Of a stretch of DNA of 64,000 nucleotides, positions 2,640 to 42,900 are shown piece by piece (position 1 is the first letter of the stretch; every line of letters starts with the position of its first letter). This DNA comes from Apteryx mantelli (Eukaryota), in contig NC_090015.1 of the NCBI RefSeq assembly GCF_036417845.1, positions 1 through 64,000 on the forward strand, read 5' to 3'. Position numbers and translations under genes: made by a program. The notes under the pieces were generated by a model. The model was not told where the DNA came from. It searched no databases and was given only the letters and a program-made list of their open reading frames with translations.

Positions 2640-5600
2640 AGCCACCCGTGTCCCTGGCGTCCCCCCATGTCCCCAGGGTGTCACCTCGATGTCACCTGCA
2701 TCCCTGGTGTCCCCCCGTGTCCTCAGGGTGTCACCCTGTCACCTGGGTGTCACCTCCATCCCTGGTGTCACCTCCATCCCTGGTGTCCCCCATGTCCCTG
2801 GTGTCCCCCCATCCGTGGTGTCCCCCCATCCGTGGTGTCCCTCCGTCCTTGGTGTCCCTCCATCCCTGGTGTCCCCCATGTCCCTGGTGTCCCTCCATAC
2901 CTGGTGTCACCTCCATCCCTGATGTTCTTCCATCTCTGGTGTCCCTCCATCCCTGGTGTCCCCCATGTCCCTGGTGTTCCTCCACACCTGGTGTCACCTC
3001 CATCCCTGATGTTCTTCCATCTCTGGTGTTCCTCCATCCCTGGTGTCCCCCATGTCCCTGGTGTCCCCCCATCCGTGACGTCCCCTCATGCCCGGTGTCC
3101 CCCCGGCAGGACGTGACGCCGCTGCAGGTGGTGCTGGCCGACACGGCGCTGCGTCCCTGCTCCCCGCGTCCCCCGGGCGTCCCCCCCACGTCCCCCGGGT
3201 GTCCCCTGCTCCATCCGTGGTGTCCCTCCATCCTTAGTGTTCCTCTGTCCTTGGTGTCCCCCCATGTCCCTGGTGTCCCCCATGTCCCTGGTGTCTCTCC
3301 ATCTGTGGTGTCTCTCCATCCATGCTGTCCCCCCATCCGTGGTGTTCCTCCATCCGTGGTGTCCCCCATGTCCCTGGTGTCCCCCATGTCCCTGGTGTCC
3401 CCCCGTCCCTGGTGTCCCCCCGTCCCTGGTGTCCCCCCATCCCTGGTGTCATCTCCATCCCTGGTGTCATCTCCATCCCTGGTGTCCCCCATGTCCCTGG
3501 TGTCCCCCCATCCGTGGTGTCCCTCCGTCCTTGGTGTCCCTCCATCCCTGGTGTCCCCCATGTCCTTGGTGTCCCTCCATCCATGACGTCCCCTCATGCC
3601 CAGTGTCCCCCCGGCAGGACGTGACACCGCTGCAGGTGGTGCTGGCCGACACGGCCCTGCGTCCCTGCTCCCCGCATCCCCCGGGCGTCCCCCTCTCCAT
3701 CCCTGGTGTCCCCCCATCCTTGGTGTCCCCCCATCCTTAGTATCCCTCCATCCGTGGTGTCCCCCATGTCCCTGGTGTTCCCCCATCCCTGGTCTTCCTC
3801 CATCCGTGGTGTCCCCTCATCCGTGGTGTCCCCTCATCCGTGGTGTCCCCCATGTCCCTGGTGTCCCCCCATCCGGGGTGTCCCCCATTTCCCTGATGTT
3901 TCTCCATTCCTGGTGTCCCTCCATCCATGGTGTCCCCCATATCCCTGGTGTCCCACCATCCGTGGCGTCCCCTCATCCCTGGTGTCCCCCGTGTCCCTGG
4001 TGTCCCCCGTGTCCCTGGTGTCCCCCGTGTCCCTGGTTTCCCCCATGTCCCTGGTTTCCACCATGTCCCTGGTGTCCCCCCATCCCTGATGTTCCTCCAT
4101 CCCTGATGTCCCTCCATCCCTGATGTCTCTCCATCCGTGGTGTCCCCCTATCCGTGGTGTCCCCCATGTCCCTGGTGTCCCTCTGTGACGTCCCCTCATC
4201 CCTGGTGTCCCCCCGGCAGGACGTGACGCCGCTGCAGGTGGTGCTGGCCGACACGGCGCTGCGTCCCTGCTCCCTGCGTCCCCCGGGCGTCCCCCCCACG
4301 TCCCCTGGGTGTCCCCTGCTCCATCCGTGGTGTCCCTCCATCCTTAGTGTTCCTCCATCCCTGGTGTCCCCCATCCTTAGTATCCCTCCATCCGTGGTGT
4401 CCCTCCATCCGTGGTGTCCCCCATGTCCCTGGTGTTCCCCCATCCCTGGTCTTCCCCCATCCCTGGTGTCCCTCATCCGTGGTGTCCCCCCATGTCCCTG
4501 GTGTCCCCCCATGTCCCTGGTGTCTCCCATGTCCCTGGTGTCTCCCATGTCCCTGGTGTTCCTCCATCCATGGTGTCTCCCATGTCTCTGGTGTCCCTCC
4601 ATACCTGGTGTCCCCCATGTCCCTGGTGTCTCTCCATCTGTGGTGTCTCTCCATCCATGGTGTCCCCCCATCCGTGGTGTCCCCCATTTCCCTGATGTTC
4701 CTCCATTCCTGGTGTCCCTCCATCCCTGGTGTCCCCCATATCCCTGGTGTCCCTCCATCCGTGGTGTCCCCCATGTCCCTGGTTTCCCTCCATCCGTGGT
4801 GTCCCCCCATCCCTGGAGTTCCTCCATCGCTGGTGTTCCTCCATCCCTGGTGTCCCCCATATCCCTGGTGTCCCTCCATCCGTGGTGTCCCCCATGTCCC
4901 TGGTTTCCCTCCATCTGTGGTGTCCCCCCATCCCTGGAGTTCCTCCATCGCTGGTGTTCCTCCATCCCTGGTGTCCCCCATGTCCCTGGTGTCTCTCCAT
5001 CCCTGGTGTTCCTCCATCCATGGTGTCCCCCATGTCCCTGGTGTCTCTCCATCTGTGGTGTCTTTCCATCCCTGGTTTCCCTCCATCCATGGTGTCCCTC
5101 CATCCGTGGTGTCACCTCCATCCCTGATGTCCCTCTATCCCTGATGTCCCCTCATGCCCGGTGTCCCCCCGGCAGGATGTGACGCCGCTGCAGGTGGTGC
5201 TGGCTGACACGGCGCTGCGTCCCTGCTTTCTGCGTCCCCTGGGTGTCCCCACTCCATCCCTGGTGTCCCTCCATCCTTGGTGTCCCCCCATCCTTAGTGT
5301 TCCTCCATGTCCCTGGTGTTCCTCCATGTCCCTGGTGTTCCTCCATGTCCTTGGTGTTCCTCCATGTCCTTGGTGTCCCCCCATCCCTGGTGTCCCCCCA
5401 TCCCTGGTGTCCCTCCATCCGTGGTGTCCCCCATGTCCCTGGTGTCCCCCCATCCCTGATGTTCCTCCATCCCTGATGTTCCTCCATCCCTGATGTCCCT
5501 CCATCCGTGGTGTCCCCCATGTCCCTGGTGTCCCCCCATCCCTGATGTTCCTCCATCCCTGGTGTTCCTCCATCCGTGGTGTCCCCCATGTCCCTGGTGT

Positions 5601-5650: not shown

Positions 5651-5662
5651 GTCCCCCGGCAG

Positions 5663-5786: not shown

Positions 5787-5872
5787 GTACGCGGCGGACG
5801 GGGGGGGGGGACGCGCCCCAGGGTGGGGGACACCACCCACCCCGGTGACACCGTGTCCCCGTCCCCGCCAAG

Positions 5873-6004
5873 GCACCTACATCCCCCGCAAGGAGGTGGA
5901 GGTGGCCGAGACGCTGCAGGCCACCGTCATCGGGCCCAACCAGGCCGTGCGGCTGCGGGCGCGCAAGGAGTGCGTCGACCGCGAGGGCGTCCGCCGCGTC
6001 ACAG
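5873..6004 (+). CDS. MVP: MVP coding exon ([45 protein letters not shown]); AG 5871-5872, donor GT 6005-6006; phase 1 at both ends
   Basis: Matches MVP '[44 protein letters not shown]'. A split Gly codon joins it to the previous exon across a short 86-bp intron. Confidence 0.9.
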
Positions 6005-9190: not shown

Positions 9191-9203
9191 CCCCTGCCCC
9201 CAG

Positions 9204-9298
9204 GCGAGGAGTGGCTGGTGAAGCGGGTGGGCGCCTACCTGCCCGGCGTCTACGAGGAGGTCCTCGACGTGGTGGACGCCATCGTCCTCACCGAGAAG
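9204..9298 (+). CDS. MVP: MVP coding exon ([31 protein letters not shown]); AG 9202-9203, donor GT 9299-9300
   Basis: Matches MVP '[31 protein letters not shown]'. The phase is consistent with the neighbouring exons. Confidence 0.9.
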
Positions 9299-9398
9299 GT
9301 ACCCGCCGGCACCCACGGGTGACCCCCACCCCACCCCACCCCACCCCACGGTGGTGGCAGCGGCGTCACCCACCTGGCCACCCGTCACCCCCCCCCAG

Positions 9399-9635
9399 AA
9401 AGCCCTGCACCTTCGGGCGACGAGGACCTTCCGGGACGCCCAGGGCACGGTGCGACGCACGGGCGAGGAGTGGCTGGTGACGCAGGAGCAGAGCGACGCC
9501 TACGTCCCCGACGTCTTCGAGGAGGTGGTGGCCCAGGTGGCCGTCACCACCCTGGGGCCCCGCCAGTACTGCGTCGTCCTCGACCCCGTGGGGCCCGACG
9601 GCAAGCCCCAGCTGGGCCAGCAGCGCGTCGTCAAG
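9399..9635 (+). CDS. MVP: MVP coding exon ([79 protein letters not shown]); AG 9397-9398, donor GT 9636-9637
   Basis: Matches MVP '[28 protein letters not shown]...[30 protein letters not shown]'. It is separated from the previous exon by a 100-bp repeat-free intron. Confidence 0.9.
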
Positions 9636-9639
9636 GTGG

Positions 9640-11350: not shown

Positions 11351-12480
11351 CGACGTGTCTCCCTGACATCCCACTGTCCCCGCCGTGTCGGTGACACGTC
11401 CCCATGGCGTCCCCGTGTCCCCGCCATGCTGGTGACACATCGTCATGGTGTCCCCACCATGCCAGCGGTGTCCCCATGGTGTCCCCATGTCCCCACCATG
11501 CCGGCGACATCTCCCCATGGCATCCCTGCATCCCCACCATGCCATTGAGACGTCCCCATGGTGTCCCCATGTCCCCGCCATGCCGGTGACATGTCCCCAT
11601 GGTGTCCCCGTGTCCCCTCCATGCCGGCGACATCTCCCCATGGCATCCCTGCATCCCCACCATGCCATTGAGACGTCCCCATGGCGTCCCCGTGTCCCCG
11701 CCATGCTGGTGACACATCGTCATGGTGTCCCCACCATGCCAGCGGTGTCCCCATGGTGTCCCCATGTCCCCACCATGCCGGCGACATCTCCCCATGGCAT
11801 CCCTGCATCCCCACCATGCCATTGAGACGTCCCCATGGTGTCCCCATGTCCCCGCCATGCCGGTGACATGTCCCCATGGTGTCCCCGTGTCCCCTCCATG
11901 CCGGCGACATCTCCCCATGGCATCCCTGCATCCCCACCATGCCATTGAGACGTCCCCATGGCGTCCCCGTGTCCCCGCCATGCTGGTGACACGTCCCCAT
12001 GGTGTCCCCCCCATGCCAGCGGCACGTCCCCATGGTGTCCCCATGTCCCCTCCATGCCAGTGACAGCTCCCCATGGCATCCCTGCATCCCCACTGTGCCA
12101 TTGAGATGTCCCCATGGTGTCCCCATGTCCCCCCCATGCCAGTGGCACGTCCCCATGGTGTCCCATGTCCCCACCATGCTGGCGACATCTCCCCATGGCA
12201 TCCCTGCATCCCCACCGTGCCATTGAGATGTCCCCATGGTGTCCCCGTGTCCCCGCCATGCTGGTGACACGTCCCCACAGTGTCCCCACCATGCCATTGA
12301 GACGTCCCCATGGTGTCCCCATGTCCCCACCAAGCCGGCGACATCTCCCCGTGACATCCCTGCCTCCCCGCCACCCTGGTGACACGTCCCCGTGGCGTCC
12401 CCATGTCCACTCCGTGCTGGTGACACGTCCCCGTAGTGTCCCCACCACGCCAGCGGCACGTCCCCATGGTGTCCCCGTGG
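11350..12480. repeat. Tandem repeat with a 277-bp higher-order period built from about 36-bp gtccccatggtgtccccatgtccccgccatgc units
   Basis: ORFs 11404..11589 and 11681..11866 are identical and offset by 277 bp. Confidence 0.9.
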
Positions 12481-19303: not shown

Positions 19304-19569
19304 GTGCGGGCGGTGGTGGGCCAGACCTACATGCTGACGGCGACGGAGGAGCTGTGGGAGAAGGAGCTGGCGCCCGGCGTGGAGGCGCTGCTGGCGGCCG
19401 CCCGCGACCCCCGGGGCCAGCGCGGGGCCACCGCCGGGGACATCGGGGACGTCGGGGACGACGCCGGGGACACGGCGGGGCGGCGGCGCGACCGCACGCG
19501 GGCCGTCACCTTCCGCGTGCCCCACAACGCCGCCATGCAGCTCTACGACTACCGGGAGCGGCGGGCGCG
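19304..19569 (+). CDS. MVP: MVP coding exon ([88 protein letters not shown]+cg); AG 19302-19303, donor GT 19570-19571 (gtgagc); 3' phase 2
   Basis: Matches MVP '[30 protein letters not shown]...[25 protein letters not shown]'. It contains an in-frame GGGGAC(A/G)TC repeat (GDIGDVGDD) related to the downstream intronic satellite. Confidence 0.85.
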
Positions 19570-20949
19570 GTGAGCGGGGACGTTGGGGACATCGGGGACA
19601 TCGGGGAGGTTGGGGGCATCAGGGACATCTGGGACGTGGAGGACATCAGAGATGTTGGGGGTGTCAGGGATGTCGGGGACATTGGGGACATCAGGGATGT
19701 TGGGGACATCTGGGACATGGAGGACATCAGAGACGTTGGGGATGTTGGGGACGTCGGGGACATCGGGGGTGTTGGGGACGTCGGGGAGGTTGGGGGCGTC
19801 AGGGACATCTGGGACCTGGAGGACATCAGAGACGTTGGGAATATTGGGGATGTTGGGGACATCTGGGACGTGGAGGACATCAGGGACGTTGGGGATGTTG
19901 GGGACGTTGGGATGTCGGGGACATTGGGGACATCTGGGACGTGGAGGACATCAGGGACGGGGACGTTGGGGACCTCAGGGACATCTGGGACCTGGAGGAC
20001 ATCAGAGACGTTGGGGATGTTGGGGATGTTGGGGGCGTTGGGGACATCTGGGACATAGAGGACATCAGAGACGTTGGGGATGTTGGGGACATTGGGGACA
20101 TGGAGGACATCAGAGATGGGGATGTTGGGGACATTGGGGACATCTGGGACATGGAGGACATCAGGGACATTGGGGATGTTGGGGGCTTTGGGGATATGGA
20201 GGACATCAGAGACGTTGGGGATGTTGGGGATGTGGGGGACATCTGGGACCTGGAGGACATCAGAGACGTTGGGGATGTTGGGAGCATTGGGGACATGGAG
20301 GACATCAGAGATGGGGATGTTGGGGACATTGGGGACATCTGGGACATGGAGGACATCAGGGACATTGGGGATGTTGGGGACATTAAGGGGCATCAGGGAC
20401 ATCAGGGACTTGGAGGACATCAGAGACGTTGGGGACGTTGGGGGCGTCAGGGACGTCGGGGACATGGAGGACATCAGGGACTTTGGGGTTGTTGGGGACA
20501 TCAGGGACGTTGGGGACATCTGGGACACGGAGGACATCAGAGATGGGGACATTGGGGATGTCAGGGACATTGGGGACATCTGGGACACAGAGGACATCAG
20601 GGACGTTGGGGGACGTTGGGGGCGTCAGGGACATCTGGGACATGGAGGACATCAGAGACGGGGATGGTGGGGACGTTGGGGATGTTGGAGACATCTGGGA
20701 CATGGATGGCATCAGAGACAGGGACATTGGGGACATCTGGGACATGGAGGACATCTGAGACGTTGGGGATGTTGGGGACATCAGGGACATTGGGGATGTT
20801 GGGGACGTTGAGGACATCGGGGACATCAGGGACATCTGGGACATGGAGGACATCAGGGACATTGGGGCTGTCGGGGATGTTGGGGACGTTGGGGGTGTTG
20901 GGGACATGTGGGACATGGAGGACATCAGAGATGGGGATGGCGGGGACGT

Positions 20950-21080
20950 TGGGGACGCCGTTGGGGACACGGGGGACGCGGCGGGGCGGCGGCGCGACCG
21001 CACGCGGGCCGTCACCTTCCGCGTGCCCCACAACGCCGCCATGCAGCTCTACGACTACCGGGAGCGGCGGGCGCGGTGAG
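20950..21080 (+). other. Copy of the exon-8 3' end plus donor (…[35 protein letters not shown]|gtgagcgggg), inside the intron-8 satellite
   Basis: About 125 nt identical to 19445-19575, including the gtgagc donor, but lacking the 5' two-thirds of the exon. Confidence 0.85.
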
Positions 21081-23444
21081 CGGGGACGTTGGGGACATCG
21101 GGGACATCGGGGAGGTTGGGGGCATCAGGGACATCTGGGACGTGGAGGACATCAGAGATGTTGGGGGTGTCAGGGATGTCGGGGACATTGGGGACATCAG
21201 GGATGTTGGAGACATCTGGGACATGGAGGACATCAGAGACGTTGGGGATGTTGGGGACGTCGGGGACATCGGGGGTGTTGGGGACGTCGGGGAGGTTGGG
21301 GGCGTCAGGGACATCTGGGACCTGGAGGACATCAGAGACGTTGGGAATATTGGGGATGTTGGGGACATCTGGGACGTGGAGAACATCAGAGACATTGGGG
21401 ATGTTGGGGACATGGGGGACATTGGGGACATCAGGGACATGGAGGACATCAGGGACATTGGGGATGTTGGGGATGTTGGGGACATCTGGGACATGGAGGA
21501 CATCAGGGACGTTGGGGATGGTGGGGACGTTGGGGACATCTGGGACATGGAGGACATCAGGGATGCTGGGGACATTGGGGAGGTTGGGGATGTTGGGGAC
21601 ATCTGGGACATGGAGGACATCAGGGACATTGGGGCTGTCGGGGATGTCAGGGATGTTGGGGACGTTGGGGGCGTTGGGGACATGTGGGACATGGAGGACA
21701 GCAGAGACGTTGGGGATGTTGGGGACGTTAAGGGGCATCAGGGACATCAGGGACATGGAGGACATCAGAGACGGGGATGTTGGGGACATTGGAGGTGTCG
21801 GGGACATCTGGGACATGGAGGACATCAGAGATGTTGGGGACATTGGGGAGGTTGGGGATGTTGGGAACGTTGGGGACATCAGGGACATTGGGGACATCTG
21901 GGACCTGGAGAACATCAGAGACGTTGGGAATATTGGGGACGTCGGGGACATCTGGGATCTGGAGGACATCAGAGACGTTGGAGATGTTGGGGGCGTTGGG
22001 GACATTGGAGACATGGAGGACATCAGGGACGTTGGGGACATTGGGGATGTTGGGAACATGGAGGACATCAGGGACATTGGGGCTGTTGGGGACGTTGGGG
22101 ATGTCAGGGACGTTGGGGACATCTGGGACCTGGAGGACATCAGAGACGTTGGGGATGTTGGGGACATTGGGGACATGGAGGACATCAGAGATGGGGATGT
22201 TGGGGACATTGGGGACATCTGGGACATGGAGGACATCAGAGACGTTGGGGATGTTGGGAGCATTGGGGACATGGAGGACATCAGGGACATTGGGGATGTT
22301 GGGGACATTAAGGGGCATCAGGGACATCAGGGACTTGGAGGACATCAGAGACGTTGGGGACGTTGGGGGCGTCAGGGACGTCGGGGACATGGAGGACATC
22401 AGGGACGTTGGGGATGTTGGGGACATCAGGGACGTTGGGGACATCTGGGACACGGAGGACATCAGAGACGGGGACATTGGGGATGTCAGGGACATTGGGG
22501 ACATCTGGGACACAGAGGACATCAGGGACGTTGGGGACATCGGGGTCGTTGGGGACATCTGGGACGTGGAGGACATCAGGGACGTTGGGGATGTTGGGAG
22601 CATTGGGGACATGGAGGACATCAGGGACATTGGGCCTGTTGGGGACGTTGGGGACGTTGGGGACATCTGGGACATGGAGGACATCAGGGACGTTGGGGAT
22701 GTTGGGGACATTGGAGGTGTTGGGGACATCTGGGACATGGAGGACATCAGAGACGGGGACATTGGGGATGTTGGGGACGTTGGGGACATCAGGGACATGG
22801 AGGACATCAGGGACGTTGGGATGTTGGGGGCATTGGGGACATCGGGGACATGGAGAACATCAGAGACGTTGGGGACATTGGGGACGTTGGGGACATCGGG
22901 GACACAGAGGACATCAGGGACGTTGGGGATGTTGGGGACGTTGGGGACATCTGGGACGTGGAGGACATCAGGGACGTTGGGGATGTTGGGGACATCAGGG
23001 ACGTTGGGGACATCTGGGACACGGAGGACATCAGAGATGGGGACATTGGGGATGTCAGGGACATTGGGGACATCTGGGACACAGAGGACATCAGGGACGT
23101 TGGGGACGTCGGGGGCGTCAGGGACATCTGGGACATGGAGGACATCAGAGACGGGGATGGTGGGGACGTTGGGGATGTTGGAGACATCTGGGACATGGAT
23201 GGCATCAGAGACAGGGACATTGGGGACATCTGGGACATGGAGGACATCTGAGACGTTGGGGATGTTGGGGACATCAGGGACATTGGGGATGTTGGGGACG
23301 TTGAGGACATCGGGGACATCAGGGACATCTGGGACATGGAGGACATCAGGGACATTGGGGCTGTCGGGGATGTTGGGGACGTTGGGGGTGTTGGGGACAT
23401 GTGGGACATGGAGGACATCAGAGATGGGGATGGCGGGGACGTTG

Positions 23445-23575
23445 GGGACGCCGTTGGGGACACGGGGGACGCGGCGGGGCGGCGGCGCAACCGCACGCGG
23501 GCCGTCACCTTCCGCGTGCCCCACAACGCCGCCATGCAGCTCTACGACTACCGGGAGCGGCAGGCGCGGTGAGCG
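23445..23575 (+). other. Second copy of the exon-8 3' end plus donor, carrying two substitutions (D>N and R>Q)
   Basis: Same 125-nt block with cgcaaccgc and cggcaggcgcgg variants. The donor gtgagc lies at 23569. Confidence 0.85.
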
Positions 23576-24399
23576 GGGACGTTGGGGACATCGGGGACAT
23601 CGGGGAGGTTGGGGGCATCAGGGACATCTGGGACGTGGAGGACATCAGAGATGTTGGGGGTGTCAGGGATGTCGGGGACATTGGGGACATCAGGGATGTT
23701 GGAGACATCTGGGACATGGAGGACATCAGGGACGTTGGGGATGTTGGGGACATTGGGATGTCGGGGACATTGGGGACATCTGGGACATGGAGGACATCAG
23801 AGACAGGGATGTTGGGGACCTCAAGGATATCTGGGACCTGGAGGACATCAGAGATGTTGGGGATGTTGGGGATGTTGGGGGCGTTGGGGACATCTGGGAC
23901 ATGGAGAACATCAGGGACATTGGGGATGTTGGGGGCTTTGGGGATATGGAGGACATCAGAGACGTTGGGAACGTTGGGGATGTTGGGGACATCTGGGACG
24001 TGGAGGACATCAGGGACGGGGACGTTGGGGACGTTGGGGACATCTGGGACATGGAGGACATCAGAGACATTGGGCCTGTTGGGGACGTTGGGGATGTTGG
24101 GGACATCTGGGACATGGAGGACATCAGAGACATTGGGCCTGTTGGGGACATTAAGGGGCATCAGGGACATCAGGGACTTGGAGGACATCAGAGACGTTGG
24201 GGACGTTGGGGGCGTTGGGGACATCGGGGACTTGGAGGACATCAGAGATGTTGGGGATGTCGGGGACGTTGGGGATGTTGGGGACATCTGGGACAGGGAC
24301 ATCTGGGACACGGAGGACATCAGGGACGTTGGGGACGTTGGGGACGTCGGGGCTGTTGGGGATGTCGGGGACGTTGAGGACATCATGGATGTCCATGGC

Positions 24400-27300
24400 G
24401 CTGGTGCCACCGGGGGGGGGGGCACGTGTGTGGGTGCGTGTGACCTGCGTGTGGGTGCGTGTGGGGGCACGTGACACCCACGTGACACCCGTGTGGGTGC
24501 GTGTGACACACATGTAGGTGCGTGTGACCTGCGTGTGGGTGCGTGTGACACCCGTGTTGGTGCGCGTGACGTGTGTGGGTGCCTATAACACACGTGTGGG
24601 TGCGTGACATTGCGTGTGGGTGCGTGTGACGTGTGTGGGTGCGTGTGACCCACGTGTGGGTGCATGTGGGTGCGTGTGGGGGGGCGTGACACCTGTGTGA
24701 CACCCGTGTGGGCGCGTGTGACCCGTGTGTGGGTCTGTGTGGGTGCGTGTGACACCCGTGTGGGTGCGTGTGGGTGTGTGTGACCCACATGTGGGTGTGT
24801 GCGACCTGTGTGTGGGTGCGTGTGGCCCGCGTGTGGGCCCGTGTGACACCCGTGGGTGCGTGTGACACGCATGTGGATGCGTGTAGGTGCGTGTGACCCA
24901 CGTGTGGGGGCATGTGGGGGTGCGTGACACCTGTGTGACACCCGTGTGGGTGCGTGTGACACACGTGTGGGTGCGTGTGACACATGTGGGTGCGTGTGAC
25001 CCATGTGTGTGTGCGTGTGACACACGTGGGTGCGTGTGAAATGCATGTGGCTGCGTGTGACCCACGTGTGGGTGTGTGTGACACACGTGTGGGTGCGTGT
25101 GGGTGCGTGTGACACCCATGTGGGTGCGTGTGACCTGCGTGTGGGTGCATGTGACCCACGTGTGGGTGCGTGTGACACGTGTGGGTGCGTGTGGGTGCAT
25201 GTGACACCCATGTGGGTGCGTGTGACCCGTGTGTGGGCCTGTGTGACCACTGTGGGTGCGTGTGACACACGTGTGGGTGCGTGTGACGTGGGAGTGGGTG
25301 CGTGTGACCTGCGTGTGGGTGCGTGTGACCCACGTGTGGGTGTGTGTGACCCACATGTGGCTGCATGTGACACCCGTGTGGGTGTGTGTGACCCACGTGT
25401 GGGGGCATGTGACCCACGTGTGGGGGCGTGTGGGGGCGCATGACACCTGTGTGACACCCGTGTGGGTGTGTGTGACCTGTGTGTGGGTGCGTGTGGGTGC
25501 GTGTGACACGTGTGGGTGTGTGTGACACCCGTGTGGGTGCGTGTGACCTGCGTGTGGGTGGGTGGGACACACGTGCGGGTGCGTGTAAAATGCGTGTGGG
25601 TGCGTGTGACACACATGTGGGGGTGTGTGACACGTGTGTGGGTGCGTGTGGGTGCGTGTGACACCTATGTGGGTGCATGTGACCTGCGTGTGGGTGCGTG
25701 TGACACGTGTGTGGGTGTGTGTGGGTGCGTGGGACCCGCATGTGGGTGCGTGTGACCTGCGTGTGGGCCTGTGTGACCCCCGTGGGCGCGTGTAACACGC
25801 GTGTGGGTGCGTGTAACACGTGTGTGGGTGCGTGTGACCTGCGTGTGGGCCCATGTGACCCCTGTGGACGCGTGTAACACACGTGTGGGTGCGTGTGGGT
25901 GTGTGTGACCCACGTGTGGGTGCGTGTGACCTGCGTGTGGGCCTGTGTGACCCCCGTGGGTGTGTGCAACATGCGTGTGGGGGCGTGTGACCCACGTGTG
26001 GGGGCGTGTGGGGGCGCATGACACCTGTGTGACACCCGTGTGGGTGCGTGTGACCTGTGTGTGGGTGCGTGTGGGTGTGTGTGACACGTGTGGGTGTGCG
26101 TGACCCACGTGTGGGTGTGTGTGACCTGCGTGTGGGTGGGTGGGACACACGTGGGTGCGTGTAAAATGCGTGTGGGTGCGTGTGACCCGCGTGTGGGTGT
26201 GTGACACGTGTGTGGGTGCGTGTGGGTGCGTGTGACACCCATGTGGGTGCGTGTGACCTGCGTGTGGGTGCATGTGACCCGCGTGTGGGTGCGTGTGACC
26301 TGCGTGTGGGCCCGTGTGACCCCCGTGGGTGCGTGTAACACGCGTGTGGGTGCGTGTGGGTGCGGGTGACCCACGTGTGGGTGCGTGTGACCTGCGTGTG
26401 GGCCTGTGTGACCCCCGTGGGTGGGTGCAACACGCGTGTGGGTGCGTGTGATGCGCGTGTGGCTGCGTGTGACCCCTGTGTGGCTGCGTGTGGGGACGCG
26501 TGACACCCGTGGGACCCCCGTGGGGTGACCCCCGTGTCCCCCGTGTCCCCACGCAGGGTGGTGCTGGGCCCCGAGCTGGCGCTGCTGGCGCCCGGCGAGC
26601 AGCCCACGGCGCCGTCCCTCTCCGGGGGGGGACACGTGTGACCCCCGCGTGGGTGCGTGTGACACCTGTGGGGTGACACGTCACGCGTGTGGGTGCGTGT
26701 GACATGTGTATGGGTGCGTGGGAGACGTGTGGGTGCGTGTGACCCGTATGTGGGTGTGGGTGACCTGCGTGTGGGTCCATGTGACACACACGTGGGTGCG
26801 TGTGACATGCGTGTGGGTGCGTGTGACGTGGGAGTGGGTGCGTGTGACCTGCGTGTGGGTGCGTGTGACCCACGTGTGGGGGTGTGTGGGGGCGCATGAC
26901 ACCTGTGTGACACCCGTGTGGGTGCGTGTGACCTGCGTGTGGGTGCGTGTGGGTGTGTGTGACACGTGTGGGTGTGCGTGACCCACGTGTGGGTGTGTGT
27001 GACCTGCGTGTGGGTGGGTGGGACACACGTGCGGGTGCGTGTGAAATGCGTGTGGGTGCGTGTGACCCACATGTGGGGGTGTGTGACGCGTGTGTGGGTG
27101 CGTGTGGGTGCGTGTGACACCTATGTGGGTGCATGTGACCTGCGTGTGGGGGCGTGTGACCCGCGTGTGGGTGCGTGACATGTGTGTGGGTGTGTGTGGG
27201 TGCGTGGGACCCGCGTGTGGGTGCGTGTGACCTGCGTGTGGGCCTGTGTGACCCCCGTGGGTGCGTGTAACACGCGTGTGGGTGCGTGTAACACGTGTGT

Positions 27301-28160
27301 GGGTGCGTGTGACCTGCGTGTGGGCCCGTGTGACCCCCGTGGGCGCGTGTAACACACGTGTGGGTGCGTGTGGGTGCGTGTGACCCATGTGTGGGTGCGT
27401 GTGACCGGCGCGTGGGTGCGTGTGGGTGCGTGTGACGTGGGTGTGGGTGCGTGTGGGTGCATGTGACATGCATGTGGGTGCGCGTGACCCCCGTGGGGTG
27501 ACCCCCGTGTCCCCCCCACCCACGCAAGGTGGTGCTGGGCCCCGAGCTGGCGCTGCTGGCGCCCGGCGAGCAGCCCACGGCGCCGTCCCTCTCCGGGGTG
27601 GGACGCGTGTGACCCCCGTGGGGACCCGCGTGGGTGCGTGTGACCCCCGTGGGGTGACCCCCGTGTCCCCCCCACCCACGCAGGGTGGTGCTGGGCCCCG
27701 AGCTGGCGCTGCTGGCGCCCGGCGAGCAGCCCACGGTGCTGTCCCTCTCCGGGGGGGGACGCGTGTGACCCCCGCGTGGGTGCGTGTGGGTGCGTGTGAC
27801 CCCCGTGGGGATGCGTGTGACCCCCGTGGGGTGACCCCCGTGTCCCCCGTGTCCCCACGCAGGGTGGTGCTGGGCCCCGAGCTGGCGCTGCTGGCGCCCG
27901 GCGAGCAGCCCACGGCGCCGTCCCTCTCCGGGGTGGGACACGTGTGACCCCCGTGGGGACCCGCGTGGGTGCGTGTGACCCCCGTGGGGTGACCCCCGTG
28001 TCCCCCGTGTCCCCACGCAGGGTGGTGCTGGGCCCCGAGCTGGCGCTGCTGGCGCCCGGCGAGCAGCCCACGGCGCCGTCCCTCTCCGGGGGGGGACGCG
28101 TGTGACCCCCGCGTGGGTGCGTGTGACCCCCGTGGGGTGACCCCCGTGTCCCCCGTGTCC
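24400..28160. repeat. GT-rich repeat of 9-30-bp units (gtgtgggtgcgtgtgacccacgtgtgggtgcgtgtgac), carrying the exon-9 junction copies near its 3' end
   Basis: Direct reading. The alternating purine-pyrimidine GT/GC character is evident. Confidence 0.9.
26530..28100 (+). other. Five truncated copies of the exon-9 acceptor plus its 5' 80 nt, starting at 26556, 27529, 27684, 27863 and 28021; they lie upstream of the real exon at 28169
   Basis: The string ccccacgcag|ggtggtgctgggccccgagctggcgctgctggcgcccggcgagcagcccacgg(c/t)gc(c/t)gtccctctccgggg recurs, with each copy diverging after ctctccgggg. The second copy has caag in place of cag. Confidence 0.85.
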
Positions 28161-28168
28161 CCACGCAG

Positions 28169-28366
28169 GGTGGTGCTGGGCCCCGAGCTGGCGCTGCTGG
28201 CGCCCGGCGAGCAGCCCACGGTGCTGTCCCTCTCCGGGGGACGCCCCAAGCGTCCCCACGCCCGCCGCGCCCTCTGCCTGCTGCTGGGCCCCGACTTCTG
28301 CGCCGACCTCGTGGCCATCGAGACCGCCGACCACGCCCGCCTCCAGCTCCAGCTCGCCTACAACTG
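28169..28366 (+). CDS. MVP: MVP coding exon ([68 protein letters not shown]); AG 28167-28168, donor GT 28367-28368; phase 2 at both ends
   Basis: Almost identical to MVP '[66 protein letters not shown]'. It is the last and only complete copy in a series of five upstream truncated copies. Confidence 0.88.
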
Positions 28367-28369
28367 GTG

Positions 28370-29690
28370 GGCGGGGCTTCGCGGGGGGGGCGGGGCTTGG
28401 CCCGCGGGGGCGGGTGGGGCTCGAGGGGGCGGGGGCTCATGTGGAGGAGGGCTGGGGGCTGGGGAGCTCCTAGGTGGGGAGAAGGGGAGGTGGGGCCTAG
28501 GGAGGGGGCGTGGCTTAACAGAGGAGGCAGGGTTTGTGGGCGGGGCTTGGACCTAGGGGTGGGGCTTGAGGGGGCGGGGCTCAGGGGAGGAGGTCTGGGG
28601 GAGGAGGTCTGGGGGCTGGGGTGCTCCCGGGTGGGGAGAAAGGGAGGTGGGGCCTAGGGAGGGGGCGTGGCTTAACACAGGAGGCGGGGATTGTGGGCGG
28701 GGCTTGGCCGCAGGGTGGGGCTTGAGGGGGCAGGGCTTATGGGAAGAGGTCTGGGGGAGGTGGGATGGGGCTGGGGAGCTCTTAGGTAGGGAGAAAGGGA
28801 GGTGGGGCCTAGGGAGGGGCGGGGCTTAAGCCAGGAGGCGGGGCTTGTGGGCGGGGTTTGGACCGGGGGGGCAGGACTTAGCCCAGGGGGGCGGCACTTG
28901 GCTCCAGCAGGGGGCTGGGGAGCTCCTAGGTAAGGAGAAAGGGAGGTGGACCCTGGGGAGGGGGTGTGGTTTAAGACAGGGGGTGGGGCTTGTGGGCGGG
29001 GTTCGGACAAGGGGGCGGGACTTAGCCCAGGGGGGCGGTGCTTGGTTCCAGTAGGGGACCAGGGAGCTGTGATGGGGCTGGGAAGCTCCCAGGTGGGGAG
29101 ACAGGGAGGCGGAGCCTGGGCAGGGGGTGGGGCTTAATCAAGGGGCAGGACTGGTGAGCAGAAGGGGGGTGGTGCTAGGTGGAAGGGGGCGTGGCTTGGT
29201 GGAAGGGGGCGTGGCTAGGTGGAAGGGGGCGTGGCCAGGGGATTCCACTCTGGTTTCTGCAAAGGGGGCCGAGCCTGGCAGGGGAAGGGGCAGGAAGGGG
29301 GGCGTGGCCTGGCGGTGGGGCGTGGCCTGAGGCGGGGGCGTGGCCAGGGGAAAGGGGGCGTGTGTTTGTAGGGGGCGTGGCCAGGGGATTCCGCTCTGGC
29401 TTCCTCAAAGGGGGCCGAGCCTGGCAGGGGAAGGGGCAGGAAAGGGGGGGGCGTGGCCTAGCATTTTAGGGGGGGCGTGCCCTGGCGGTGGGGCGTGTCT
29501 TGGCGGTGGGCGTGGCCAGGGGAAGGGGGCGTGGCCAGGGGAGAAGGGGGCGTGGCCTGGGGTGGCCGTAGGAGTTCTTACTGCTGCAAAGGACGGGAAG
29601 GAGAAGGAGCAGGAAAAAGGGGGGCGGGGCCTGGTGGGTGATGGGGGCGTGGCCCCGTGGCGCGGAGGGGGCGGGGACACTGAGGCCACG
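28370..29690. repeat. Degenerate GC-rich repeat of about 18-30-bp units (ggaagggggcgtggcc / ggggcgtggcctgg)
   Basis: Direct reading. Confidence 0.8.
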
Positions 29691-31640: not shown

Positions 31641-33150
31641 AATGTCCCCAGAGCTCGAACCCCGTGATCTGCCCGGCCCTGTTCAGCTTCAGCGAGGCCC
31701 CATGTCCCCAATGTCCCCAATGTCCCCGACGTCCCCAATGTCCCTGATGTCCCCAATGCCCCCAATATCTCCAATGTCCCCGATGTCCCCAATGTCCCTG
31801 ATGTCCCTGATGTCCCCAATGTCCCCGACGTCCCCATCGTCCCTGATGTCCCCAATGCCCCCAATATCTCCAATGTCCCCGATGTCCCCAATGTCCCTGA
31901 TGTCCCTGATGTCCCCAACGTCCCTGATGTCCCCAATGCCCCCAATATCTCCAATGTCCCCGATGTCCCCAATGTCCCTGATGTCCCCGATGTCCCCAGA
32001 ACTCCAACCGGGTGATCTGCTCGGCCGTGTTCGGCTTCAACGAGGCCCCATGTCCCTAATGTCCCGTAATGTCCCCAATGCCCCGTAATGTCCCCGATGT
32101 CCCCAACATCCTCAATGTCCCCAATGTCCCCAACGTCCCCGATGTCCCCGACGTCCCCGCCGTCCCCAGAACTCCAACCGGGTGATCTGCTCGGCCGTGT
32201 TCGGCTTCGATGAGGCCCCGTGTCCATAATGTCCCGTAATGTCCCCAATGTCCCCAACATCCTCAATGTCCCCAATGTCCCCGATGTCCCTGATGTCCCT
32301 GACGTCCCCGCCGTCCCCAGAACTCCAACCGGGTGATCTGCTCGGCCACGTTCGGCTTCGACGAGGCCCCGTGTCCATAATGTCCCGTAATGTCCCCAAT
32401 GTCCCCAAGGTCCCCGACATCCCCAATGTCCCCGATGTCCTGACATCCCCGATGTCCCCAATGTCCCCGATGTCCCCAGAACTCCAACTGGGTGATCTGC
32501 TCGGCTGTGTTCGGCTTCGATGAGGCCCCGTGTCCCTAATGTCCTGTAATGTCCCCGATGTCCCAACGTCCCCAACGTCCCCAATGTCCTCAATGTCCCC
32601 AACATCCCTGATGTCCCCAACGTCCCTGATGTCCCCAGAACTCCAACCGGGTGATCTGCTCAGCCGTGTTCGGCTTCGACGAGGCCCCGTGTCCATAATG
32701 TCCCATGATGTCCCCAACATCCCTGATGGCCCTGATGTCCCCGACGTCCCTGATGTCCCCGATGTCCCTGATGTCCCCAACGTCCCTGCTGTCCCCAGAA
32801 CTCCAACCGGGTGATCTGCTCGGCCGTGTTCGGCTTCAACGAGGCCCCGTGTCCCTAATGTCCCATGATGTCCCCGATGTCCCCAACGTCCCTGATGTCC
32901 CCGATGTCCCCGACGTCCCCAACGTCCCCAGAACTCCAACCGGGTGATCTGCTCGGCCGTGTTCGGCTTCGACAAGACCCTATGTCCCTAATGTCCCGTA
33001 ATGTCCCCGATGTCCCGTAATGTCCCTGCTGTCCCCAACATCCTCAATGTCCCCAACGTCTCCGATGTCCCCGACATCCCTGATGTCCCCGATGTCCCCA
33101 GAACTCCAACCGGGTGATCTGCTCGGCCGTGTTCGGCTTCGACGAGGCCC
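31640..33150 (+). other. Nine copies of the exon-11 acceptor plus its 5' 50 nt (ccccag|aactccaaccgggtgatctgctcggccgtgttcggcttcgacgag), starting at 31652 (degenerate), 32000, 32170, 32321, 32480, 32639, 32799, 32932 and 33102
   Basis: Near-identical strings recur every 133-170 bp inside a higher-order repeat of 15-21-bp 'gatgtcccc' units. The copies continue gccccgtgtcc, whereas the real exon at 33253 continues ggcggccgcctgcgc. Confidence 0.85.
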
Positions 33151-33252: not shown

Positions 33253-33465
33253 AACTCCCAACCGGGTGATCTGCTCGGCCGTGTTCGGCTTCGACGAGGG
33301 CGGCCGCCTGCGCGAGCGCCTCCGCTTCGCCCCCAACGGCCTGGTGGTCACCAGCGTGGACATCCAGAGCGTGGAGCCCGTGGACCAGCGGACGCGCGAC
33401 GCCCTGCAGCGCAGCGTCCAGCTCGCCATCGAGATCGCCACCAACTCCCAGGAGGCCACCGCCAG
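33253..33465 (+). CDS. MVP: MVP coding exon ([70 protein letters not shown]-ag); AG 33251-33252, donor GT 33466-33467. Apparent +1 frameshift in a C-run near 33257-33259
   Basis: Matches MVP 'NSARIIRMAVFGFE...[47 protein letters not shown]'. The nine upstream truncated copies read aactccaaccgg in frame, whereas this copy reads aactcccaaccgg. Confidence 0.7.
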
Positions 33466-38612: not shown

Positions 38613-38802
38613 GAGGCGGAGCTGGCGCGGCTGGAGCGCGCGCAGGCGCAGGAGCTGCGGGTGCGGCGGGCGCGGGCGGAGGCGGAGGCGGCGCACGCGC
38701 AGGCCATGGCCGAGGTGGAGGGGGGGGCGCGTGCGCGACGTGGCCGCCGCCCTCGGCCCTGACGTCATCCGCGACATCGCGCGCGCCGGGCCCGAGCTCC
38801 AG
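38613..38802 (+). CDS. MVP: MVP coding exon (EAELARLERAQAQELRVRRARAEAEAAHAQAMAEVEGG[fs]RVRDVAAALGPDVIRDIARAGPELQ); AG 38611-38612, donor GT 38803-38804. Apparent +1 frameshift in the G7 run at 38721-38727
   Basis: Matches MVP '[63 protein letters not shown]'. The upstream frame (phase from 38613) and the downstream frame (from 38731) differ by one nucleotide across a 7-G run. Confidence 0.7.
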
Positions 38803-39602: not shown

Positions 39603-40150
39603 GGCGGCCCTTGGCAGTGATGATGTCGTGGCGGTGATGTCAGCGGTGGGGGCGGGGCACTGGGGGCGGGGTGTCACAGGATTGGGGGCTGGGCACTGTG
39701 ACGTCATCAAGGCGGGGCTGCTGCTGGCTGTGATGTCACAGCTCTGGGAGCGTGGCGACCAATGAGGTCGGGGCGGCGCACCCGGGCGTGATGTCATCAG
39801 CTTTGGGGGGGAGGGGGCCGGGGTGTGATGTCATGGCCCCGGGGGGGGGGGCGTTGGGGGCCGTGATGTCATAGGGCCGGGGGAGGGGGCGGGGCTGCGA
39901 TGTCGCAGGGCGGCGCCGGGGGCTGTGATGTCACCGGGCTGGGGCGTGACGTCACCAGGCTGCGGTGTGATGTCACCGGGGTGGGGGCGTGATGTCACCG
40001 GGCTGCGGTGTGATGTCACCGGGCTGGGACGCGACGTCGGGGTGGGGGGGGGGGGCAGCGCTGGGGGTCGTGATGTCACCAGGCTGCATGTGTGATGTCA
40101 CCGAGCTGGGGTGTGATGTCACCGAGCTGGGGCGTGATGTCACCAGGGTG
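39600..40150. repeat. Array of about 16 units of about 30-40 bp centred on GTGA(T/C)GTCA(C/T) (CRE-like TGACGTCA / TGATGTCA), in the convergent intergenic space
   Basis: gtgatgtcaccgggctgg, gcgtgacgtcaccaggctgcg and ctgtgacgtcatcaaggcgg recur. Confidence 0.85.
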
Positions 40151-40232
40151 GGGGAGGGGGGGGGCGGTGCGGGGGTCCCCGGACACCTGGGCCCCCCCCC
40201 GAAAACAGGACGCGGCGGCTCCCGAAGGCTCC

Positions 40233-40238
40233 TTTAAT
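40233..40238 (-). terminator. TLCD3B: Putative ATTAAA poly(A) signal for TLCD3B (implied 3'UTR about 40215-42032, running through the 42-bp satellite)
   Basis: Plus-strand tttaat is the only hexamer-variant signal I found between the TLCD3B stop (42033) and the MVP 3' end. I found no tttatt or tttaat in 40400-42033. Confidence 0.4.
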
Positions 40239-40286
40239 ACTGAGGTTATTGCTGCTGCGCGGGGGCCCCCCCCGGGGGGGGGGACG

Positions 40287-40312
40287 GACGGACGGACGGA
40301 CGGACCCAGGTG
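40287..40312. repeat. (GGAC)6 tetranucleotide microsatellite
   Basis: ggacggacggacggacggacggac. Confidence 0.9.
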
Positions 40313-40399
40313 TCCCCGGAGCCCCCCGGGGGGGCTGCTACTGTCCCGGGGGCACCCAAGGGTGCTCCTGGGGGGGGGGAGGGGCGTCACCGCCACCTG

Positions 40400-41900
40400 G
40401 GGAGCCGGGGGGGGGGGCTGCTACGGTCCTGGGGACAACCAAGGAGGGGGGGGGGCTGGGTGTCCTGGGGGCACCCATGGGTGCTCCTGGGGGGGGTCCC
40501 CACCCCTAGGATGGGTGCTGGACACCCTGAAGACATCTAAGGTGGCTTCTAGGGGGTGGTCACCACCCCTAGGACACCCCGGGGTGGGTGCTGGACACCC
40601 TGAAGACATCTAAGGTGGCTTCTGGGGGGTGGTCACCACCACTAGGACACCCTGGGGTGGGTGCTGGGTGCCCTAGGGGCACCCGTGGGGGCTCCTGGGA
40701 GATGGTCACCACCCCAGGACGCTACAAGGTGGGTCCTAAGTACGCTGGGGGCACCCAAGGGTGCTCCTGGGGGATGGGCAACATCTTGAGGGCGCCCAAG
40801 GGTGCTCGTAGGAGACGCCCACCACCCTGAGAACAAGCAGATGTGCTCCTGGGAGGCCCTGGAGACACCTAAAGGTGCTTCTAGGAGACGGCCACCACCC
40901 TGGTGACACCCAAGGGTGCTCCTAGGAGACGACCACCACCCTGAGAACACCCAAAAGTGCTTCTAGGAGATGACTACCACCCTCGTGACACCCAAGGGTG
41001 CTCCTAGAAGATGGCCACCACCTTGAGAACACCCAAGGGTGCTCCCGGGAGATGGTCTTCACCCTTGTGACACCCAAGGGTGCTCCTAGAAGATGGCCAC
41101 CACCCTGAGGACACCCAAGGGTGCTCCTAGGAGATGGCCACCACCTTGAGAACACCCAAGGGTGCTCCCAGGAGACAACCACCACCCTGGTGACACCCAA
41201 GGGTGCTCCTAAAAGATGGCCACCACCCTGAGGACACCCAAGGGCGCTCCCAGGAGATGGCCACCACTCTGAGAACACCCAAGGGTGCTCCCAGGAGATG
41301 GCCACCACCCTGGTGACACCCAACAGTGCTCCTATGAGACGACCACCACCCTGGTGACACCCAAGGGTGCTCCTAAAAGATGGCCACCACCCTGATGACA
41401 CCCAGAGGAGCTCCTAGAAGATGGCCACCACCCTGAGAACACCCAAAAGTGCTTCTAGGAGATGACCACCACCCTGGTGACACCCCAGGGTGCTCCTATG
41501 AGATAACCACCACTCTGGTGACACCCCAGGGTGCTCCTAAGAGACGACCACCACCCTGGTGACACCCCAGGGTGCTCCTATGAGATAACTACCACTCTGG
41601 TGACACCCAAGGGTGCTCCTAGGAGATGGCCACCACTCTGGTGACACCCAAGGGTGCTCCTAAGAGACAACCACCACCCTGGTGACACCCCAGGGTGCTC
41701 CTAGGAGATGGCCACCACTCTGGTGACACCCAAGGGTGCTCCTAGGAGATGGCCACCACTCTGGTGACACCCAAGGGTGCTCCTAAGAGACAACCATCAC
41801 CCTGGTGACACCCAAGGGTGCTCCTAGGAGATGGCCACCACTCTGGTGACACCCAAGGGTGCTCCTATGAGATACCCACCACCCTGGTGACACCCCCATG
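40400..41900. repeat. Satellite of about 42-bp units (gtgacacccaagggtgctcctaggagatggccaccaccctg) repeated about 35 times, within the presumed TLCD3B 3'UTR
   Basis: Direct reading. Confidence 0.9.
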
Positions 41901-42032
41901 GCGGGTCCTGGTCACCCCAGACACCCCCCCCCCCTCCCCCAAACCAGGGCTACACCCCCCCCACCCCCACCCCACCCACACCCCACCTCGCACCCCGACG
42001 GGCGCCGCAGCACCCCGGGGTGCCGGGCGGCA

Positions 42033-42293
42033 TCAGGGAGGCGCCGGTGGGCGGAAGAGGCGCCAGGCGCCGCGGCAGATGAGGCCGAACCAGTAGAGCT
42101 GGGGGGCGAGGAGGGCGGCGGCGGCAGCGTTGTAGGCAGCAGGCAGCGCCGCCGGCACCCGCAGCAGCGGCAGCCCCGCGTGGCGCCCGTAGGCCCAGTA
42201 CAGGTAAGGGAAGAGCAGCACCCGGCACCCGAAGAAGGTCACCAGCATGGCCAAGCCGTTGAGCTTGTGCAGCGCCGTGTGTTGCCGCTTGTA
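42033..42293 (-). CDS. TLCD3B: TLCD3B (FAM57B) terminal coding exon ([86 protein letters not shown])
   Basis: Minus-strand translation aligns to the TLC-domain protein FAM57B/TLCD3B C-terminus '...[48 protein letters not shown]...[21 protein letters not shown]'. The minus-strand acceptor cag lies at plus 42294-42296. The frame matches ORF 42033..42317(-). Confidence 0.85.
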   Translation of the reverse strand, partial: [86 protein letters not shown]

Positions 42294-42339
42294 CTGCCGG
42301 GTGAAGAGGGGGGACAACGGGGGACGCGGTCAGCGCGTA

Positions 42340-42900
42340 GGGGGTGGCCGGGGTCACCTCTATGGTCTCCCGAGGGATCCTGGTGGCCGGGGACCCTGGT
42401 TCACCCCTATGTTCTCCTGAGGGACCCGGGTGTCTGGTGGCCCCGATCCATCCCTACGTCCTCCTGAGGGACCCAGGTGTCCGGGGATCCTGGTGTCTGG
42501 TGGCCCCGATCCATCCCTACGTCCTCCCGAGGGACCCAGGTGTCCGGGGACCCTGGTTCACCCCTATGTTCTCCTGAGGAACCCGGGTGTCTGGTGGCCC
42601 CGATCCATCCCTACGTCCTCCCGAGGGACCCAGGTGGCCGGGGATCCTGGTTCACCCCTATGTTCTCCTGAGGAACCCGGGTGTCTGGTGGCCCCGATCC
42701 ATCCCTACGTCCTCCTGAGGGACCCAGGTGGCCAGGGACCCTGGTTCACCCCTATGTTCTCCTGAGGGACCCGGGTGTCTGGTGGCCCCGATCCATCCCT
42801 ACGTCCTCCCGAGGGACCCAGGTGGCCGGAGACCCAAGTGACCAGTGGCCCCGATCCACCCCACGTCTTCCCAAGGGACCCAGGCGTCCGGGCCCCACCC
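42340..42900. repeat. Tandem repeat of about 46/92-bp units (ctggtggccccgatccatccctacgtcctcctgagggacccaggtgtccgg…ggttcacccctatgttctcctgag), in the last TLCD3B intron
   Basis: ORFs 42344.., 42430.. and 42477.. share peptides. Confidence 0.85.

Follow-up and report, generated by a model that had tools for sequence, protein, structure and literature searches.

What are five extra copies of a splice acceptor and exon start doing in the intron that this acceptor closes? The question is raised by a stretch of 64,000 nucleotides of Apteryx mantelli DNA (NCBI RefSeq assembly GCF_036417845.1, contig NC_090015.1, positions 1 to 64,000 of the forward strand; here, the window), in which such copies precede the ninth visible exon of the gene for the major vault protein (MVP). 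Our analysis indicates, with a probability of roughly 0.8, that the five copies represent exon stuttering, the local expansion of tandem repeats in an intron that minisatellites fill, within a GC-rich avian gene. Most likely, the copies arose passively from repeat instability and have no function of their own. Exon numbers below follow the order of the MVP exons visible in the window, the first coding exon lying outside it, and copy counts refer to one haplotype of one individual.

Exon-edge copies in the MVP gene

Searches by tblastn, first with human MVP, which served solely as a probe, and next with the emu protein, revealed 15 MVP exons on the + strand, from 909 to ∼39540, with GT-AG boundaries throughout. 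The assembled protein matched the Pfam families Vault, Vault_2, Vault_3, Vault_4 and MVP_shoulder (PF01505, PF17794, PF17795, PF17796 and PF11978), all above the cut-offs. Its closest database proteins were the MVPs of emu and ostrich (91%) and of Rhea pennata (89%); identity was 78 to 84% for neognath birds and ∼70% for other reptiles. The host gene is the major vault protein gene of a palaeognath bird. At the nucleotide level, its exons were 92.6 to 93.3% identical to those of emu, ostrich and rhea, and because these distances resemble those among the three, the window represents a fourth deep palaeognath lineage.

The exon that follows the copies opens in mid-codon, its first base being the third of an Arg codon that starts with the last two bases of exon 8. 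In tblastn it was 82% identical to amino acids (aa) 479 to 545 of human MVP and 98.5% identical to aa 509 to 575 of emu MVP, and its region falls in Pfam Vault_3 and MVP_shoulder. An earlier, sequence-only reading of this DNA had called it exon 9, which is accurate for the ninth visible MVP exon and not for its true rank. Intron 8 (19570-28168, 8.6 kb) is tiled by arrays with 9/18-bp, 21/42-bp and 156-bp units, as detected by Tandem Repeats Finder (TRF).

The 32-base string at the start of this exon, GGTGGTGCTGGGCCCCGAGCTGGCGCTGCTGG, occurred exactly six times on the + strand (at 26557, 27528, 27684, 27863, 28021 and, in the real exon, 28169) and was absent from 100 dinucleotide-preserving shuffles. 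All five upstream copies matched exon positions 1 to 71/72 with 97 to 100% identity (125 to 143 bits), on the + strand and in the proximal intron. The acceptor CAG was kept in four of them and moved by one base in the fifth. Five upstream copies were what the sequence-only reading had listed, with coordinates that proved correct within 1 base. Reading and alignment placed the block common to all copies between about -45 of the intron and +71/72 of the exon, or ∼+77 if a 3-base G-run indel is tolerated; the 80 nt of exon proposed before were slightly too many. The intron part of the block reads GTGACCCCCGTGGGGTGACCCCCGTGTCCCCC...CACGCAG and includes the branch-point and polypyrimidine region.

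The last five units start 156, 179, 158 and 148 bp apart, in line with the ∼150- to 180-bp spacing read earlier. TRF assigned them a 156-bp period with 4.8 copies, and a 335-bp higher-order period with a 93% match. Copy 1 is separated from the others by ∼0.85 kb of 21-bp minisatellite, and the array stands at the 3' end of the 21/42-bp minisatellite, the GT-rich setting that had already been recognized. Copy 2 has CAA/G in place of CAG/G (a slash marks a splice junction), also as first read; its sole AG, at 27527-27528, is thereby shifted one base downstream and reads AG/GTGGTG, and a donor-like GGG/GTGGGA directly follows its exon-derived part. The same donor-like sequence lies 70 nt past the acceptor of copy 4. 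All 72 exon-derived nt of copy 3 (at 27684) are identical to the real exon. This copy also shares with the real exon the string ACGGTGCTG, encoding T-V-L, and the other four copies have ACGGCGCCG, encoding T-A-P, a distribution that had been noticed correctly. Both base differences are TpG/CpG transitions. Human, emu, ostrich and rhea all have T-V-L, so the T-A-P state of the decoys is derived and GC-increasing.

Are such copies a peculiarity of one exon, as first thought? They are not. We applied a published screen (blastn-short, length ≥20, >42.1 bits), with shuffled introns as the control, and recovered 19 exon-edge copies in 3 of 14 introns, scoring 60 to 198 bits; the best score in shuffled introns was 28.2 bits. 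Every copy was in the intron adjoining its source exon. Fourteen of them belong to three other exon edges of MVP (Table 1), all with their splice signals retained, and comparable arrays occur in rhea, emu and ostrich. With the real sites included, intron 8 holds three identical donors and four identical acceptors. The four copies of the second exon are spaced ∼500 to 950 bp apart. Most of the independent exon-edge arrays have units near 150 to 160 bp (148 to 179, 151 to 170, 155, 151 and 159 bp), an apparent clustering close to nucleosome length.

Sequence stuttering, or exon stuttering, was named in 2026 on chicken dot chromosomes (Genome Biol Evol, PMC12954441). It was reported there for 115 chicken genes and 236 introns, with 1 to 44 copies (median 4). 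In that study, the neighbouring donor or acceptor was copied along, lengths varied strongly within populations, and the expansions were inferred to be recent and species-independent. We found every sequence-level feature of exon stuttering in the MVP array, namely the copies, their score, the splice site and the repeat-covered intron. In both cases, the intron is nearly all minisatellite in a GC-rich context, the lateral part of a coding exon and the adjacent splice site are repeated in direct tandem in the neighbouring intron, the copies keep strictly to the proximal intron, and the blocks measure tens to hundreds of bases; the MVP copy numbers fall within the published 1 to 44. The MVP array is clearly a new example of published exon stuttering rather than an element of a new kind; no mention of MVP was found in that study's main text or in two supplementary files. 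Two differences stand out. The published cases are from chicken, whereas the MVP host is a palaeognath, and the chicken expansions are read as recent, whereas arrays at exon 2 of emu, ostrich and rhea suggest an old array under concerted evolution.

The genomic setting is consistent with this assignment. Introns made only of tandem repeats are documented in GC-rich 'hidden' avian genes (PMC6792250, PMC9021737), and in zebra finch, introns of dot chromosomes consist of >70% tandem repeats (bioRxiv 10.1101/2025.10.17.683159). The window has 69% GC, and the MVP orthologs of emu and ostrich lie on 3.3- and 4.8-Mb records, the size of dot chromosomes. To judge by the orthologs' record sizes and by GC, a dot chromosome is the probable location of the locus.

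Table 1. Exon edges, their copies and tandem arrays at the MVP locus (positions in the window unless a species is named)
Feature	Position	Strand	Remarks
Real MVP exon, ninth in window	28169..28366	+	198 nt; acceptor CAG/, donor CTG/GTGGGC
Copy 1	26512..26628	+	GTGAC branch-point-like, C-rich tract, CAG at 26554-26556; exon-derived 26557-26628; T-A-P; 97.2% identity to exon positions 1-72, 127 bits (blastn-short)
Copy 2	27483..27598	+	T-A-P; 125 bits
Copy 3	27639..27755	+	Pyrimidine tract variant CCCCCCCACCCACGCAG; T-V-L; 143 bits
Copy 4	27818..27933	+	Acceptor 23-mer same as real exon's; T-A-P
Copy 5	27976..28092	+	Acceptor 23-mer same as real exon's; T-A-P
156-bp tandem array with 335-bp higher-order period	27474..28240	+	TRF, alignment; final unit is the real intron/exon boundary
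Exon 8	19304..19569	+	Donor GCG/GTGAGC, must join acceptor at 28168
9/18-bp minisatellite GGGGACATT and GGGGACGTT	19576..24383	+	5' part of intron 8; TRF
GT-rich 21/42-bp minisatellite CGTGTGGGTGCGTGTGAC...	24423..27500	+	3' third of intron 8; copy 1 inside; TRF
Copy of last 104 nt of exon 8	20972..21075	+	Intact GTGAGC donor; 99% identity, 198 bits
Second copy of last 104 nt of exon 8	23465..23568	+	Donor intact; 97% identity, 182 bits
Four copies, acceptor and first 46 nt of second exon	3110..5221	+	Real exon starts at 5663
Eight copies, acceptor and ∼47 nt of start of eleventh exon	32004..33147	+	Real exon starts at 33253
Exon-2 donor array, emu locus	6201-8605		
Exon-2 donor array, ostrich locus	8351-12270		
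Exon-2 donor array, rhea locus	3400-6041		

Choice among identical acceptors

Which of these acceptors is used? The acceptor 23-mers (-20 to +3) of the copies at 26557, 27863 and 28021 were identical to that of the real exon, and the copy at 27684 had a more pyrimidine-rich tract than the real one. Acceptor-strength scoring therefore cannot tell real from decoy, because four of the six 23-mers are identical. The donor-like sequences GGG/GTGGGA and TGG/GTGCGT were found 70 to 106 nt past each decoy acceptor, and GTGCGT is also the hexamer of one real MVP donor. The decoy sites scored 0.96 to 1.44, compared with 2.42 for the donor of the real exon and -3.85 to 6.98 for the gene's real donors, on a generic position weight matrix; these scores, like those from a matrix of the gene's own 14 donors, are indicative only.

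Use of a decoy acceptor, with or without the donor-like sites, would usually meet a TGA, part of a GTGTGAC motif, only a few codons on. For the copy at 27863, the 70-nt product had no early stop and shifted the frame of the real exon. Only the shifted-AG copy at 27528 yielded frame-restoring inserts, and these are read out of frame within the copy. In the protein models of emu, ostrich and rhea, exon 8 is joined straight to the full exon. Productive mRNA needs the most downstream acceptor, because only that one precedes the rest of the exon; the last unit, taken as the real exon in the sequence-only reading, is the only one contiguous with the remainder. From this reading-frame logic and the three protein models, we infer that the most downstream acceptor is used. 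The discriminators are likely to be exon definition, through the ∼125 nt of coding sequence left in the exon and its authentic donor, and nonsense-mediated decay, which would clear errors. Recursive splicing was rejected, as only the copy at 27528 reads AG/GT and the rebuilt donor (GCG/GTGGTG) has no G at +5.

A comparable arrangement is known from human F7, in which intron 7 carries a 37-bp variable-number tandem repeat, the first unit of which lies across the boundary between exon 7 and intron 7 (PLoS Genet 2006, PMC1557585). Five to nine identical donors result, and the most upstream alone is used, via 5'-to-3' scanning (PMC1557585). As in F7, a terminal minisatellite unit of MVP is the real junction (here the last 156-bp unit, with three decoy 23-mers identical to it), several sites are identical to the authentic one, and only the site attached to the full exon would give normal mRNA. 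F7 presents the donor side, with the first site used, whereas MVP is its acceptor-side mirror, with the last site productive; in addition, the MVP units have ∼4 times the length, and the effect extends over the entire gene. Because its productive site is the most downstream, MVP opposes a simple 5'-to-3' 'first site wins' rule, and on the acceptor side such scanning predicts the wrong site. F7-like donor arrangements were also seen at the two copies of the end of exon 8 and at exon 2 of emu, ostrich and rhea. A further parallel is the creation of introns by tandem duplication of a segment with splice signals (Nat Commun 2011, PMC3265369). There, as here, duplicated splice signals are invisible in mRNA, as the spliceosome removes the redundant copy; the within-exon duplication creates an intron, whereas the boundary-spanning duplication in MVP merely lengthens an existing one.

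A single product is required of an intron that has four equally strong acceptors, a further one whose tract differs, and three identical donors. MVP intron 8 offers a natural parallel to F7 intron 7 and to the classic experiments with duplicated splice sites, and what it adds to the literature is a clean natural set-up for selection among identical acceptors. Were the exon-edge arrays old and persistent, which seems doubtful to us, either a strict positional rule ('last of identical acceptors wins') would apply, or the upstream copies would serve as regulated unproductive sites; each outcome would be a new statement on 3' splice-site choice in vivo. For annotation, identical splice sites and exon fragments within introns can mislead gene predictors and spliced aligners in new bird genomes.

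Origin of the copies and competing explanations

How did the copies arise, and have they evolved independently since? Their 5' flank type, G-run type, GACA/GACG state and T-V-L/T-A-P state did not fit any single tree, and two character pairs showed all four combinations among the copies (four-gamete incompatibility). Therefore, recombination, gene conversion or recurrent mutation must have acted besides duplication. Taken together with the two-unit, 335-bp higher-order repeat, the four-gamete incompatibilities point to continuing exchange between copies. The earlier proposal of at least two rounds of duplication is right about multiple rounds, to which recombination or gene conversion has to be added.

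The mutational mechanism that we infer would begin with a tandem duplication, one breakpoint in the exon and the other in the intron, giving a repeat unit of ∼150 to 180 bp composed of the last 75 to 100 nt of intron 8 and the first 72 to 77 nt of the exon. After this founding event, a single intact exon would close the array on its 3' side, with truncated copies upstream within the intron. The unit would then have been multiplied by slippage or unequal exchange, and the copies continually shuffled and homogenized by recombination or gene conversion. A GACGC microhomology common to exon and repeat adds little, being 5 nt long in GC-rich DNA, with the motif rare in the upstream array. With the real exon edge serving as the array's terminal unit, unconstrained copies could pass changes into a conserved protein by exchange.

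Quantification of diversity revealed that the exon-derived part of the unit was 2.5 to 7 times less variable than the remainder. Values for exon-derived and other columns were 0.014 and 0.094 in the exon-9 array of the window, 0.010 and 0.024 in the Rhea array at the same exon, and 0.057 and 0.165 in the eleventh-exon array of the window. Conversion from the constrained real exon, slippage or poorer alignment in the intron part, and selection all fit this pattern.

We compared the MVP loci of emu, ostrich, Rhea pennata, cuckoo, ptarmigan and lizard. Tandem repeats covered 87% of the MVP gene span in the window, 83% in emu, 77% in ostrich and 87.5% in rhea, compared with 29% in cuckoo and 15% in ptarmigan, neognath values that assembly quality may lower, and 1.7% in lizard. 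In Rhea pennata, the same acceptor was preceded by 11 copies that repeat every 159 bp, all of which retained the ...CCCCGCAG acceptor intact and included 56 nt or more of the exon before diverging; no copies were found upstream of the homologous exon in emu and ostrich. The breakpoints of the two arrays differed (∼72 to 77 nt in the window versus ∼56 to 66 nt in Rhea), and their junction sequences did not align. A multi-unit 77% blastn match between them consisted mostly of the identical exon part and low-complexity GT-rich sequence. In the cuckoo (Phaenicophaeus), a single partial copy (locus positions 10664-10717; 18 aa, 72% identity) lies upstream of the eleventh-exon homologue and may represent stuttering at an early stage, or in decay, in a neognath.

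At exon 2, the 3' end of the exon and its donor were present in 16 extra copies in emu, 25 in ostrich and 19 in rhea, with periods of 151 to 155 bp. Among the subset examined directly, the CAG/GTACCTAT donor was intact in all but one rhea copy. The exon-derived length was 82 nt in emu, 87 in ostrich and 86 in rhea, so that breakpoints agree within ∼5 nt. Copies in each species matched that species' own synonymous states, and a decoy-only A-to-C variant was present in 11 of the 16 emu and 10 of the 25 ostrich copies and in neither real exon. The array is absent from the window, yet the corresponding intron there begins with the same CCTATAG-type repeat. These data suggest that the exon-2 array may be old and homogenized together with the real exon edge through concerted evolution; alternatively, GC-biased mutation may have recurred, or the arrays may have originated independently at a hotspot. 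The near-equal breakpoints, the decoy-only variant common to emu and ostrich, and the presence of the exon-9 acceptor array in two deep lineages (window and rhea) are the grounds on which the arrays could be old. That palaeognath MVP arrays in general are old and persistent, rather than recent accidents, nevertheless seems doubtful to us. What goes somewhat beyond the literature is the evidence that some exon-edge arrays may be common to deep lineages of palaeognaths and undergo concerted evolution with the real exon, which suggests that some of them persist far longer than the chicken study proposed. If the arrays are old, the real exon edge would evolve in concert with unconstrained intronic copies, and variants such as the change from T-V-L to T-A-P could enter the coding sequence.

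Could the copies instead be functional? The acceptor copies, perhaps with the two donor copies, might engage U2AF/U2 and U1 and throttle MVP expression, either by unproductive splicing and nonsense-mediated decay or by intron retention, as in the decoy-exon model. That model already exists for large introns (RNA 2018, PMC6097662), in which conserved single cassettes promote retention and are defined by function and RNA evidence, namely junction reads after inhibition of nonsense-mediated decay, minigene effects and U2AF binding. The MVP copies resemble decoy exons in having real-looking splice sites within a large (>1 kb) intron and nonsense-containing products if included: with acceptors the same as the real one and donor-like sites 70 to 106 nt on, they are definable as short exons, and inclusion or read-through mostly meets a TGA in a few codons, as poison exons would. 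They differ in being multi-copy duplicates of a neighbouring exon edge that are known from sequence only. The recurrence or persistence of exon-edge arrays across palaeognath lineages also counts for function, but with 5 exon-9 copies here, 11 in rhea and none in emu and ostrich, and with a breakpoint that varies too, drift fits better. Gene conversion or extra slippage in the intron part accounts equally well for the better conservation of the exon-derived part. The occurrence of the same structures at numerous exon edges and in 115 chicken genes, where lengths vary widely within populations (PMC12954441), points to a mutational process. We therefore consider a decoy function unlikely.

Mis-assembly of a GC-rich repeat, as the source of the array or of its copy number, is a still weaker candidate and in our judgement very unlikely. 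Sequencing of regions of this kind is known to be difficult (PMC6792250, PMC9021737), and the MVP coding sequence has two +1 homopolymer frame problems (near 33258 and 38720); however, homopolymer errors do not create 150-bp duplications, and the copies differ by structured substitutions and indels in a higher-order pattern rather than by random noise. Equivalent arrays were present in three independent assemblies of other species, and the chicken arrays were confirmed in raw nanopore reads (PMC12954441). Least probable of all is that the upstream copies are genuine alternative exons, whether as cassettes adding protein or because the true exon starts upstream. The copy at 27528 combined with GGG/GTGGGA or TGG/GTGCGT does give 69- or 105-nt frame-restoring inserts. 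Read out of frame, however, these would place unrelated Arg/Trp/Pro-rich sequence inside the conserved Vault_3-shoulder interval, and the other acceptor/donor combinations usually end at TGA. The emu, ostrich and rhea models join exon 8 to the full exon directly, and vertebrate MVP proteins have no insertion at this point.

Several observations weigh against exon stuttering with passive copies, as we propose it. The low diversity of the exon-derived part could equally reflect selection on the copies. Two probable homopolymer errors in the assembly make the G-run lengths in the copies unreliable. The acceptor in use is deduced from reading-frame logic and ortholog annotations, and local signals fail to explain why the last acceptor would win, given identical 23-mers and donor-like sites in the range of real ones. 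Finally, the dot-chromosome placement is indirect, drawn from the records of the orthologs.

Other features of the locus

Exon 8 contains a Gly-Asp-rich coding insert (19420-19480) made of GGGGACATC and GGGGACGTC units, and its 9-bp motif also fills the first 4.8 kb of intron 8 (124 matches), so that this repeat seems to straddle coding and intronic sequence at the exon 8/intron 8 boundary. Different GD-rich inserts were found at the same protein position in emu, ostrich and rhea. Over intron 8, G-quadruplex motifs numbered 77 on the coding strand versus 6 on the template strand. The sign of GC skew flips between adjacent introns, being about -0.3 in most and +0.3 to +0.5 in intron 8.

The two frame problems were located as follows. 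The eleventh exon (33253-33262) reads AACTCCCAACC, and all eight of its upstream copies read AACTCCAACC; the resulting C3 versus C2 near 33258 is a +1 change in the assembled coding sequence. Because the preceding exon ends in phase 0 (CAC AAG/gt), the extra C shifts the frame of all downstream coding sequence. It is probably a homopolymer assembly error, and could be a real lesion. In the fourteenth exon (38713-38722, near 38720), G8 versus emu G7 gives a second +1 frameshift (AEVEGG/RVRDVAAALGPD...), and the rest is 95% identical to emu. We rejected the possibility that the gene is a pseudogene, as both problems are +1 changes in homopolymer runs, the coding sequence is otherwise intact and conserved, and all introns are GT-AG; assembly error is more likely than pseudogene lesions for the two. 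Coding on the minus strand was also rejected. Open reading frames of 439 to 889 aa in several frames encode His/Thr/Pro/Arg repeat peptides, which are typical of stop-poor CA-rich repeats, and the two that were scanned (889 and 545 aa) had no Pfam match.

Downstream of MVP, positions 39645-42800 are homologous to the emu downstream flank. Within them, the block 42181-42305 is strongly conserved (90 to 92% at the protein level, tblastx) and may belong to a neighbouring TLC-domain gene, which is on the minus strand in emu and ostrich. The last part of the window, from 44131 to its end at 64000, contains ∼20 kb of a 58-bp satellite, AGGGGCCCAGGCGTCCGGGGAGTCTCGCGTCACCTCTAGGGGGACCCGGGCGTCCGGG, with 77% GC. 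The emu flank gave only a short, weak match to this satellite, and no match was found in MVP-locus DNA of ostrich or rhea. Within the window, the satellite has higher-order periods of 116 and 174 bp.

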